The translations under genes were made by a program, and so were the position numbers. This document shows, one piece after another, positions 58,965-64,000 of a stretch of DNA of 64,000 nucleotides. Origin of the DNA: Octopus vulgaris (Eukaryota); contig OX597842.1 in assembly GCA_951406725.2 (NCBI GenBank), positions 25,792,001-25,856,000 on the forward strand. Reading direction: 5' to 3'. Numbering within the stretch: the first letter of the stretch is position 1; every line of letters begins with the position of its first letter. Under the pieces are notes generated by a model that was not told the origin of the DNA, did not search any database, and worked only from the letters and a program-made list of their open reading frames with translations.

Positions 58965-61900
58965 TGGACACTGGACCTCACTGAAGAAATGACAAGGGAA
59001 TGGGAGAAGTGGCAATTAGCTACACTTGATAAGACATCAAGTGTAGCTAAGTAAAATCAGTCTTTCACACATGCAGGCTTGTCTTTTCAGGCGTTGTTGG
59101 TGCCACGCCACATAAAAACCACCCGTGCAGTGCTGCATTAATGCACCTGTGCTGATGGCATGTAAAAGGCACCCAGCACACACTGCTATGTGGTGGGCAT
59201 CAGGAAGAGCATCCAGCCGTACAGATCATGCCACAACAAATAGTTGGAGTTTGGACTGCTCCATGCCAGCATGGAGAGCAGATGTTAAATGATGATATAT
59301 ATACACACATGCATACTCATGGATGGTCTGTAAGGTATTGTGCTAAGCCTCATGGGACCTAAAATTTTAGGTTGTGCAATCACCAGTATGCCTAGTTGAA
59401 TAGGAGGAGGGCATCATGTTGAGCATGGAAGCCAACTGTGGGTGCAAATAACCTCATACATGGGCACTACCAAACATTTTCTTTGTGCTATGGTCAGTGA
59501 TGGTCATCCTCAGACACAAGCTGAGCACCTGCATGCATGCATGTACATTTTTTTTTTGTGGGTTAACCAGGCTACCATAGGTTTCATGTTGAGAGATTTC
59601 AACAATGGGCCAAGAGGAGCAGCAATATGCTACCCAATTAGTACTGAAGTGTGTTGGTCATAACCAAAACACTAGCTTAGCCAACCAGATATAAAGAATT
59701 GAAAGAGTACCCAGTTAGCAGCAAAGTACCCAGCTGACCATAGCAATGGCTCCATCAACTAGATATAAACAAGTACAGTAGAGTAGAGCTGTAGTAATGC
59801 CAAAGAAAAACTATGGGGATCAGTGGGGCTGGCACAAGAGAAAAATATATGCACAGGGAGCCAATCTGTCCCAAATAAAAGTAAGAAAATCCTTCATGCA
59901 AAGACAGATGAAGGATTAGGTTGCCTCAGGTGGACACATGCATACATACACAGAAGAGATAGGAGTCATGTGAGGGCCAGCTCACTTATTTACACACACA
60001 GAGAAAGCAATTCAACACACAGGTAAACCAACGAGGAAGGCTCTGTATGGTTTTGTGTGGCCTGTTACAAATAGTAGCTAAATCCACTTGGACTACAGCC
60101 TGCAATTTAATAACACAAAAAAAAAAAAAGGAAGTGTCTGGAAAAAAAAAAAGAGCTGAGGTGGTCATGGTTAGAGTGACCTTGACCACAGGTCTGCTTG
60201 ATCAGGGTTGACTTGGCGGTAAACAACAACACACTTGAGGACATTGAGAGGGACATTGTGTGCATGGAAGACAGCTTCCATCTTTGCAAACAAGCCAATT
60301 CAAAGACATATTTATATATAAATATATATATATTCACACACAAAAAAATTATAATTTAGGAGTACAATCATTGGCTGTCATTAAGACAGGTGTTAAAAAA
60401 AATATAATTTTTTTTCTTTTATTATTAATCAAACTCTTACAATATTTCCTGCAAGAGACACAAAACACCCCCAAAAATAAATTTTAAAAATTAAGATAAT
60501 ACATCACCCCCTTCAATTTCCTGAATTCTCCCAAAATTAATTAGAATTTTAAAATTAACTAAAACACAGGCTTTTTGGGGGTTTATTACTAATTATTTGT
60601 AGAACAGTGTCTTGAGCAAATCCTGAGAGTGGGCCTCATGGTTATACTGGCCACACACAGAATACAGTAATTTAAATTTAGCAATCCTGGGTGGAATTCT
60701 GCTTCAAACACCCTATCTTTTGCATTTTAGAATTTTCAGAAAATTTTAGCAAATTTCTTTTTTACAGATGGGAATTCACAACTATGAAAAAAAATTTCAA
60801 TTTTTTTCAATCTCTTAATTAAAAAAATTTTTTTAACCCTTTAGCATTTTATCCAGCCAAAAGTATTCTACCTGTTTTATGTTCAAACTGGTCTCTCACA
60901 CCAGCCCTACAATATCGTTTTAAAAATTAACAGCTACATCATCAAAATCTCATAACTACAAGATAATGCCTGATTAGTTCAAGGCAATGTGGATAAAAAA
61001 GGATTAATTTTGGCAGAATAATGTTAACACTAAAGGGTTAAACTCTTCGTAAAAATCTGGACAGTCCAAATTTTTGGCTTAAATCCCAATGGACCATTAA
61101 ATGTGCTTATGGCAAGAAAGATATTGAAAAAATTCAAAACATCAAACTGACAGAGGACAGTATAAGATGGTCATGAGATGTGTTAAAAACAACAGCTCAA
61201 TGTACCTTAATCACAATTTTTTGGGGGGGGTTGTTGACTAATCATGTAAATTCCTGTGTATAAAACACAAATTCGCAAGAAATTTCTGAAAAAAATTCCA
61301 AAACCAAAAAGTTACAAGGAGTTATAATAGGGGGTCCTTAAAGCAAAATTCCACCCAGGAAAGGATGATCTCAGTGGGATTTGAACTCAAAATATAAAAG
61401 GGCTGTTTGTTCCTAAAAACTGCAACATGACATTCATCCTGATGTTGGTTCTGCCACTTGCAGACTCCAACAATTAAGATGAAGACTGGGTATTTGGATT
61501 CACAAATTGCAGTCTGCTATTTTTTTTTAGCCCCTTTTTTTTTTAAGTATTTCCTCCACCTCTGTTCTACCAGAATCTGAAGACAAAATTAGGGAGTGCT
61601 GATCATCCCAATCAACCCTGGTCATTTCCTTAACCCTTTAGCATTTAAACCAACCATGTCCAGCCCAAACATTCAACCATTTCTATGATCGGGCCGACCA
61701 GATCAGGCCTCTCACACCTCCCCGACAATGCAGTTCTGAAACTAATCCTGCTGACATTTTTGAAGCTATCAAATAATGCAGGATTAATTCAAAACAATGA
61801 ATGAATAAGCATTACACACTTGGTAGAGAAATCTATATGCCAAAGGGTCAACAAACAACCCTTTCCTTGTTCCACCCCAACCTCATGAAAAAAAAAAAAA

Positions 61901-62181
61901 AAACCTTCTGAATCACAAATTAAAAAAATAAATATCCCCATCAGTGATGACATCACATATACAAAGGGTCAGAAATGTTGACCCTTGAAAACACAAATAT
62001 TTAAACAAAAGCAAATGATGTATGTATACATACATATACACACATACGTATACACATATGTATGTATGTATATATATATACACACACATACGTATACACA
62101 TATGTATACATGTATACATGTATGTATATATATATATACACACACATACGTATACACATTGATGTGTGTGTGTGAGTGTGC

Positions 62182-62308
<127 letters not shown>

Positions 62309-62611
62309 TATGTATACATATATATATATATATGTATTGCATAAAGAGCAATGATATAAAAATATTGCAGACGCGCGTGCACTCAAATCTCTCGTACACA
62401 CAGAAACACACACATGCGCACGCGCGCGCTTGCCATTTTAAAGGCTACATTTTTTCGACCAAATAACTTTTGATCATTGACTGAGGGGTTGTTTTTTTTT
62501 TTTTGCGATGTTGACCGCTAAGAAACAGGGCTAACACGCATCGACGAACCCCAACTTATTTTTTTTTTGGTTTGTTAACGGTGCAAAAATGGAAAAAATC
62601 AAAATACATAC

Positions 62612-62642
62612 ACTTTTTCGGTAGTCATCACTTCGTGGTAGC
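62612..62642 (-). CDS. RBBP6: RBBP6 microexon (LPRSDDYRKS), exon-3 equivalent
   Basis: Very strong acceptor cttcctctttttcttccacttctttccctag, donor gtatgt; 31 nt, phase 2-0 like the short vertebrate exon 3 (from recall). Confidence 0.7.
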
Positions 62643-62854
62643 CTAGGGAAAGAAGTGGAAGAAAAAGAGGAAGACTATGTAAAAAGAACAATCTGAGAAC
62701 AAAATCTTTCTAGAATGTCGAAATAAGGGTTCATAAATTTAATGAAGAAAGGGACTAACTAAACAAGCAGCAGGACTTGCTGTCACTACACGCCACTAAC
62801 TGATACACAGAAAATGCAGGAAATCAAAAACACACAAGTATGCAAAATTCTGTT

Positions 62855-63249
62855 CTATATTTAAGAGATGAGGAATTATGTACATTATTTACATTTGATG
62901 GATATTTGTCCTCATCTTGTTTCTTGTTAACACGTTTCGACTGATATACCCTGCAGCCTTCATCAGGTGCCTTGGAGAAATTTCGAACCTGGGTTCTCAC
63001 TCCTAAGGTATTTTTTCGATGTAATTAACCATTACGTCATATGCCCGTGTGCATATGGTGTAGTGGTTAAGAGCGCAGGCTACTAAACCCAAGATTCCAA
63101 GTTTGATTCCAAGCAGTGACCTGAACAATAATAATAATATCGAAAAATACCTTAGGAATGAGAACTAGGTTCGTAATTTCCCCAAGACACCTGAAGAAAC
63201 ATGTTAACAACAAACAAGATGAGGACAAATATCTGTCGAATGTAAATAA
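62855..63249. mobile_element. Second copy of the palindromic tRNA-head/hammerhead element
   Basis: Same arms and the same centre atatgcccgtg; 16-bp TSD TATGCAAAATTCTGTT at 62839-62854 and 63250-63265. Confidence 0.7.
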
Positions 63250-63863
63250 TATGCAAAATTCTGTTGTACACAACAGACAAGGATTCTTGCAGAACAATCT
63301 CCATAGACAGGTTCTTTAGTGACCAAATGTTTTTGCCATATATTAGCTCATTCCTACCATCAAACTGACATTGCCTATATACCTCTCACTATCTATATGT
63401 ATGTAAAATAGAAGCACCAGCCCTCACTAAACCACAACTGCACAAGTGCCCACTACATAATGCCCTTAAATATACATCTCATGTTCTCACAATACAACCA
63501 CCACAAACTTGCTATACTAAACCAAGTATCAGCCCTCATTACACCTCAACTACACAAATCCTCGCAATACAAGGCTTTTATATATCCCTTGTCTTCTCAA
63601 TACTATCACCACGCAGGTCCTAAAGTTCACCAGTACACAAACCCATACTATATTGCCACAGGCACCAGCCCTCACTACACTGCAACCACAAAAACCTCGC
63701 CACACCCCTGCAACAGAATGCTCTTAAATATGTTCTCACAACATATTTTCATTCCAACACAAGCCCTTGGCATACCACTGCATAAGCCTTCACTTCACCA
63801 CCACATAATAGCCAACTTCAACGCACAAGCCCTTGAAAAACCGCCACTACACAAAGCCCTCAA

Positions 63864-63898
<35 letters not shown>

Positions 63899-64000
63899 AT
63901 TTTCTTACAATACAATCCCACAAAGGTACTCACCCTCAACAATACAAACAAAACCTTCACAACACCACTACAACAATGCCCTTAAATGTACACCCAATGT

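Follow-up and report, generated by a model that had tools for sequence, protein, structure and literature searches.

The window analysed here, a stretch of 64,000 nucleotides of the Octopus vulgaris genome (G000:C29:25792001-25856000), carries part of the RBBP6 gene on its minus strand. Near the end of the window lies RBBP6 exon 3, 31 nt at 62642-62612, which is preceded by a polypyrimidine tract and TAG and followed by GTATGT. The exons and introns considered are the following.

G000:C29:25874840-25875008, minus strand: exon 1 coding sequence, 169 nt, DWNN, 19 kb beyond the window
G000:C29:25856088-25856184, minus strand: exon 2, 97 nt, 88-184 nt past the window end
62643..64000 in the window, minus strand: intron 2, 1,445 nt in total with 87 nt past the window end; internal control
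62612..62642, minus strand: exon 3, 31 nt, phase 2-0, counterpart of human exon 3; exon 2-3 joint in 4/4 runs
33958..62611, minus strand: intron 3, 28,654 nt, the longest of 13 introns measured
33919..33957, minus strand: exon 4, 39 nt, phase 0-0, with a strong donor CAG/GTAGGA (the slash marks the boundary)
32977..33062, minus strand: exon 5, TPDLANADASENDKIEAM..., matching vertebrate TANLAEANASEEDKIKAM

The reading frame stays open across the joined exons of 169, 97, 31, 39 and 86 nt, later exons supply the zinc knuckle and RING, and an annotated Octopus protein (P0193) maps onto the exons residue for residue. The gene belongs to the RBBP6/Mpe1 family, with PF08783 above the cut-off, a match to 2C7H (E 7e-19), and knuckle and RING exons within the window. 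Phase 2-0 agrees with the coding lengths, since exons 1 and 2 amount to 266 nt (169 + 97) and exon 3 brings them to 297. Read in the frame of exon 2, exon 3 gives (W)LPRSDDYRKS, and an unspliced donor continues as VCILIFSIFAPLTNQKKNKLGFVDAC up to a stop at 62533-62531. The initial annotation had described a 31-nt phase 2-0 exon with donor GTATGT, a tail closed by a stop if the donor is unused, and a 28.6-kb intron, all of which agree with these data; the DWNN exons 1 and 2 that it placed beyond position 64000 were both located, with exon 2 spliced to 62642. Exon joints, frame and P0193 rule out that the acceptor belongs to another gene or another phase, and given the residue-for-residue map and the 2-0 phase, the ATTK-stop frame is therefore excluded. 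A processed copy as the origin of the spliced contigs was likewise rejected, as just one strong DWNN locus (exon 1) was found in the octopus genome among 10 candidates scored. Elsewhere on the minus strand, broken intronic frames at 14689-14303, 30542-29811 and 10031-9684 look similar to piggyBac-, mariner- and LINE-type fragments.

The donor behind exon 3 is unusual in strength.

62606..62614, minus strand: intron 3 donor AGT/GTATGT, non-G at -1 and T at +4

With duplex energies computed against the U1 end, its predicted pairing is the weakest of 14 octopus donors (-4.5 kcal/mol, the next being -5.4), and the weakest scored donor of octopus RBBP6 opens the longest of its measured introns. Reading past this donor involves three features.

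62531..62611, minus strand: read-through tail, 26 codons plus TAG, jointly spanned by records 17 and 18 of run X4
62559..62568, minus strand: A10 run in the tail, crossed gap-free by X4 record 18
62492..62504, minus strand: A13 run past the stop, a possible oligo-dT mispriming site; X1 record 1 starts here

Four runs from four studies were compared over exon 2 to the first 270 nt of intron 3. These runs are assembled contigs whose RNA status is a guess, supported by the spliced exon 2-3 joint, and their depth gives no isoform ratio. The joint to 62642 is present in all four, and the unique parts of intron 2 are without cover in all four. The boundary between exon 3 and intron 3 is crossed in one run (X4), and the start of intron 3 is covered in two (X4 and X1); X7 and X14 have zero cover over its first 270 nt. 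X4 record 18 is a contig of 124 nt, of which 73 nt belong to intron 3 and 51 nt to the exon side, and 21 letters of the latter form its link to exon 2, as placed by the joint table; record 17, a second contig, continues past the tail stop. X4 cover of intron 3 then drops within 220 nt, and the X1 contig covers the intron downstream of the A13 run. Read-through RNA running from exon 3 into intron 3 up to the in-frame stop, without which the initial annotation would have failed, is supported by these contigs, and the A10 run on which the tail length had been said to depend aligns gap-free between genome and contig. Since the boundary between intron 2 and exon 3 is uncovered, the X4 molecules had likely already lost intron 2. 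Translation of such a read-through would close a predicted DWNN-only protein of 125 aa.

Several further observations concern exon 2 and intron 2. The intron 2 donor at the end of exon 2 (G000:C29:25856087) reads ATG/GTGTGT, with T at +4, and belongs to neither main class, yet it is spliced in all four runs. Exon 2 has an A>G difference on the plus strand (L001:3178) in X1, X7 and X14 that is absent in X4, likely an allele because its direction is wrong for A-to-I editing of this gene. Intron 2 also contains, 230 nt before exon 3, an inverted pair of a highly abundant interspersed repeat (62873-62938 and 63196-63261); the two copies show 88% complementarity across 66 nt and could form double-stranded RNA, a possible editing substrate.

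The octopus branch point is also that of the human short form. Human isoform 3 (NP_116015.2, P0394) reads ...TTKA/VCKNT..., and the end of octopus exon 3 matches this human KA/VC branch point; as in RBBP6 isoform 3, exons 1-3 are spliced and branch in phase 0 at the end of exon 3. Vertebrate boundaries, inferred from alternative protein models and not from vertebrate DNA, fall after YVI, after KA and after LTK, which match the ends of octopus exons 2, 3 and 4, and human, shark, snake, bird, frog and fish proteins all fork at one place, K[AS]/VC versus K[AS]/ID. The DWNN domain is 59% identical over 94 aa between human and O. bimaculoides (P0194), and human D43 and R74 are E and R in octopus. 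Vertebrate models P0137, P0139, P0144, P0150 and P0156 contain extra cassette exons in RBBP6 introns 2 and 3, and birds have many DWNN-containing partial copies.

Read-through proteins with V-C at the exon 3 junction were found in squid, nemertean, crustaceans, chelicerates, myriapods, dragonfly and vertebrates. A query of exon 1 only, blind to the junction, gave 273 matches, and inspection by eye of the 120 listed identified 22 read-throughs with exons 1-2-3 spliced: 19 with VC (10 from ticks) and 3 with VR, spanning about nine VC lineages and one VR lineage. The VC set comprises squid/cuttlefish, centipede-like, millipede-like, tick, scorpion-like, dragonfly, branchiopod-like, annelid-like and echinoderm-adjacent sequences, and the VR lineage is sea-urchin-like; lineages were placed by named neighbours in a tree of 97 columns with many open forks, so the -like labels are approximate. 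This count leaves out short proteins ending in ...DPSK or ...TKEG-x, which are read-throughs of other introns and mostly come from genomic contigs; read-throughs of introns 2 and 4 also occur (e.g. P0124, P0222 and P0152). Later, partly biased searches add VC proteins from Lineus, a Lingula model, Penaeus, Cherax, a mite and a protein grouping with cnidarians (P0293, which reads KE/VC and groups with Nematostella), examples rather than counts, as some of these searches used a profile that included the VC column; other proteins from these searches have VR, VH, VG or VS at the junction. Automatic NCBI models of the short form already exist for Penaeus, Cherax, Ixodes, Ladona and Diadema. A read-through protein is visible only where read-through occurs, so this sample favours weak donors. 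As a control, 48 intron 1 read-through proteins were compared at their second residue, which varies among 9 amino acids, M (GTATG) accounting for 7 of the proteins.

Beyond VC the tails vary from 3 to 103 aa and their sequences differ. The 16-aa tails of Penaeus and Cherax (P0384-P0388) are near-identical, and conservation at the RNA or protein level is possible. Most tails are hydrophobic (GRAVY > 0 in 21 of 22), probably because of U-rich sequence after the donor, which could affect stability. At the exon 3 junction no intron is present in genomic loci L017 and L038 or in fly-like, beetle-like and other insect proteins, and several insect lineages thus appear to have lost intron 3. The deep conservation proposed in the initial annotation proves wider than was claimed, reaching many invertebrate groups; given this recurrence, the DWNN-only short form is, to judge from these sequences, likely far older than vertebrates.

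The donor itself was compared in DNA, using those of 80 metagenome loci found to reach exon 3, one locus per lineage, together with octopus. Intron 3 opens with GGA/GTATGT in L012 and L070, GGY/GTATGT in L013, L014, L019 and L020, ACA/GTATGT in L061 (mayfly-like) and ACA/GTACGT in five worm-like loci; ordinary donors occur in L059 (AAT/GTAAGT) and L021 (TCT/GTAAGT), both genomic loci with short introns. The type GTAYGT or non-G/GTAYGT is found at intron 3 in 6 of 8 lineages versus 2 of 39 other donors (Fisher p 7e-5), the control donors being few and not independent. A non-G at -1 is present in 8/8 intron 3 donors versus 12/39 others, and the mean predicted U1 duplex is -4.9 versus -7.7 kcal/mol. 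Restricted to genomic loci and excluding octopus, GTAYGT occurs in 4/6 intron 3 donors versus 2/26 others (p 0.006). Weak GTAYGT donors are also found at L061 intron 5 and L021 intron 1. By length, intron 3 ranks first among 9 measured in L020 and third among 7 in L061, where it has 240 nt and its neighbours 53-58 nt; the first 45-80 bases of intron 3 are conserved within the water-flea-like loci and within the worm-like loci. In L014, L019 and L020, conserved blocks also lie deep inside intron 3 and before its acceptor. The metagenome set further holds intron-poor DWNN genes of non-animal look (L025, L029, L036-L037, L039-L058 and L062-L064).

Across the bilaterian intron 3 starts, which the initial annotation proposed to compare, the weak donor type recurs, and we are highly confident that its conservation is real. 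A weak, conserved 5' splice site on a large intron, of the kind known from CSTF3 and PCF11, is thereby found at RBBP6, the exceptions being the short introns of L059 and L021. The shared VC start had been noted before and does recur, human included, but the tails beyond it are unlike. Since a phase 0 GT always gives V, C comes from T at +4 and the tails differ, what is conserved would most likely be the weak donor and not the dipeptide; VC as a protein motif is disfavoured also by the worms, which have the same donor type (GTACGT) and read VR.

How the read-through RNA ends is a separate matter. In octopus, the following candidate sites were listed in intron 3.

62333..62338, minus strand: AATACA; a scan for 12 poly(A)-hexamer variants gave no other in the initial 1.7 kb of intron 3; candidate
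60582..60587, minus strand: first AATAAA, 2,025 nt into intron 3, with a second at 60423; candidates
58596..58601, minus strand: AATAAA with TGTA upstream and, downstream, a flank richer in T/G (0.72) than at any other listed site; candidate

The initial annotation was right that poly(A) signals follow in intron 3, but the density of AATAAA is that of background (31 copies, with 37 on the other strand; 1.08 per kb versus 1.07 in intron 1) and the first copy lies 2,025 nt in, so we set the octopus hexamers aside as evidence. In other animals, 3 of the 4 worm loci of sufficient length carry an aligned AATAAA 288-339 nt into intron 3, and in 3 of 5 worm loci AATAAA or ATTAAA is also present in the initial 400 nt of introns 1-2; L061 has three AATAAA in its 240-nt intron 3, and L012 has one, with the contig extending 427 nt beyond. 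Intron 3 of L013, L014 and L020 contains neither AATAAA nor ATTAAA, and the water-flea-like L014 has exons 1-2-3 spliced and runs on through all 739 nt of intron 3 to reach exon 4; L015, by comparison, is spliced throughout. The evidence is thus mixed, the worm loci, L061 and L012 suggesting polyadenylation and L014 retention. For octopus we lean slightly towards a discrete polyadenylated short isoform.

The whole intron kept in L014 makes regulated retention (detention) of intron 3 a live rival, in which transcripts would stay nuclear or be destroyed via the early stop, RBBP6 dose would be controlled and little short protein made. It would fit the three hexamer-free introns, the conserved intronic blocks of water-flea-like loci and the unconstrained tails. 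We nevertheless consider it rather unlikely, because stable RNA from a retained intron of 28.6 kb would be surprising, the worm loci share an aligned AATAAA, and human isoform 3 ends by polyadenylation in intron 3 and has been detected as protein (PMC4201286); moreover, an assembler may fuse a polyadenylated form and pre-mRNA into one contig. Improbable, in our estimate, is that octopus makes no regulated product and the contigs are nascent RNA of a late-spliced long intron, helped by the A-runs, with the donor kept for timing or for alternative exons in intron 3. Such an account would cover the patchy signal (2/4 runs, falling within 220 nt in X4), the position of the A10 and A13 runs in the covered stretch, and the shark and ray models (P0137, P0139 and P0144) in which additional exons are included after exon 3 and before exon 4, but it leaves read-throughs at this junction in many phyla, even with introns below 1 kb, an X1 contig downstream of the A13 run and so on the wrong side for priming there, and the free drift of the intron 1 donor. 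A donor tuned to U6 snRNA m6A, in which a +4 pyrimidine with a poor exon end would be better spliced at low METTL16 activity and would link full-length RBBP6 to that pathway, is very improbable: GTAYGT intron 3 donors do fall outside both the AG//GU and //GURAG classes, and +4U sites are used more upon U6 m6A loss (PMC11732430), but the C at +4 in worms is unpaired with A43, and simple weakness accounts for the pattern.

We therefore prefer, at a probability of roughly 0.55, the reading that octopus exon 3 is read through into intron 3, with a likely intronic poly(A) end and a DWNN-only product. The weak donor and the long intron would delay splicing, letting 3'-end processing compete with it, and in part of the transcripts intronic cleavage would win; these transcripts would likely end at a poly(A) site within intron 3 and yield a DWNN-only protein resembling human isoform 3. 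The free, ubiquitin-like DWNN domain and full-length RBBP6 might then be competitors for the cleavage machinery, as human work suggests. Of this chain, the present data show the donor weakness, the intron length and the contigs that read through; the other steps are carried over from human work, CSTF3 and PCF11. In the accessible parts of the human studies, RBBP6 is needed for activation of the CPSF73 endonuclease, and the short isoform blocks cleavage and declines in several cancers (PMC4201286, PMC11331416 and PMC8887125); D43 and R74 are required for CPSF activation (PMC8887125), and autoregulation is put forward only as 'an attractive idea' (PMC4201286). By analogy, an inhibitory short protein in octopus is possible, at somewhat less than even odds, and autoregulation by it is more tentative still. 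Equally tentative is the idea that the weak intron 3 donor, kept since the bilaterian or perhaps cnidarian ancestor, is a feedback switch working through a DWNN-only inhibitor, and that this switch disappeared together with the intron from flies, beetles and other insects; such a loss would explain why the switch was taken for a vertebrate invention.

The octopus feature is real, of a kind known from human isoform 3, and its conservation is broader than reported. A donor weak across phyla points to a control element and to long-term selection on the switch, and bears on how the RBBP6 isoform ratio is set, a question left by the 2014 work. Introns of 240 to 800 nt, as in mayfly- and water-flea-like loci, offer compact natural test systems, and flies and beetles apparent natural losses. 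Among titles and abstract beginnings, with most subscription papers outside this scope, we found no published report of an invertebrate DWNN-only isoform or of conservation of the intron 3 donor. The finding would correct the statement, from a 'preliminary analysis' of 2006, that the short form occurs in vertebrates and not in invertebrates (PMC1360078).

Compared with human RBBP6 isoform 3 (NP_116015; Pugh 2006, Di Giammartino 2014), the octopus form has the same gene, three exons, phases, branch point, VC start and short tail, with a predicted 125 aa against 118 aa and interface residues kept or conservatively changed; the tails are unrelated after VC. The human form has a 1.1 kb mRNA, a known intron 3 poly(A) site and a detected protein, whereas octopus has candidate hexamers only, the first AATAAA 2 kb in. 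Drosophila SNAMA-B, a shorter invertebrate RBBP6 isoform, keeps the zinc finger and U-box and is not DWNN-only (PMC4463644). The nearest parallels in design are CSTF3 (CstF-77) intron 3 and PCF11 intron 1, where, as in octopus RBBP6, a 3'-processing factor gene has a weak donor on an early intron; for CSTF3 intronic polyadenylation, the intron is large and the donor weak, and the PCF11 donor is also weak (PMC6428223 and PMC3708835; PMC7471841, PMC9934614 and PMC13226542 were also consulted). Feedback has been demonstrated for CSTF3 and PCF11, and the CSTF3 short forms are without apparent protein product; conservation of the CSTF3 donor has been shown across vertebrates, and the site in fly su(f) autoregulates too. 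RBBP6 differs from both CSTF3 and PCF11 in having one donor type at one and the same intron in different phyla, and in a predicted product that is a folded domain.
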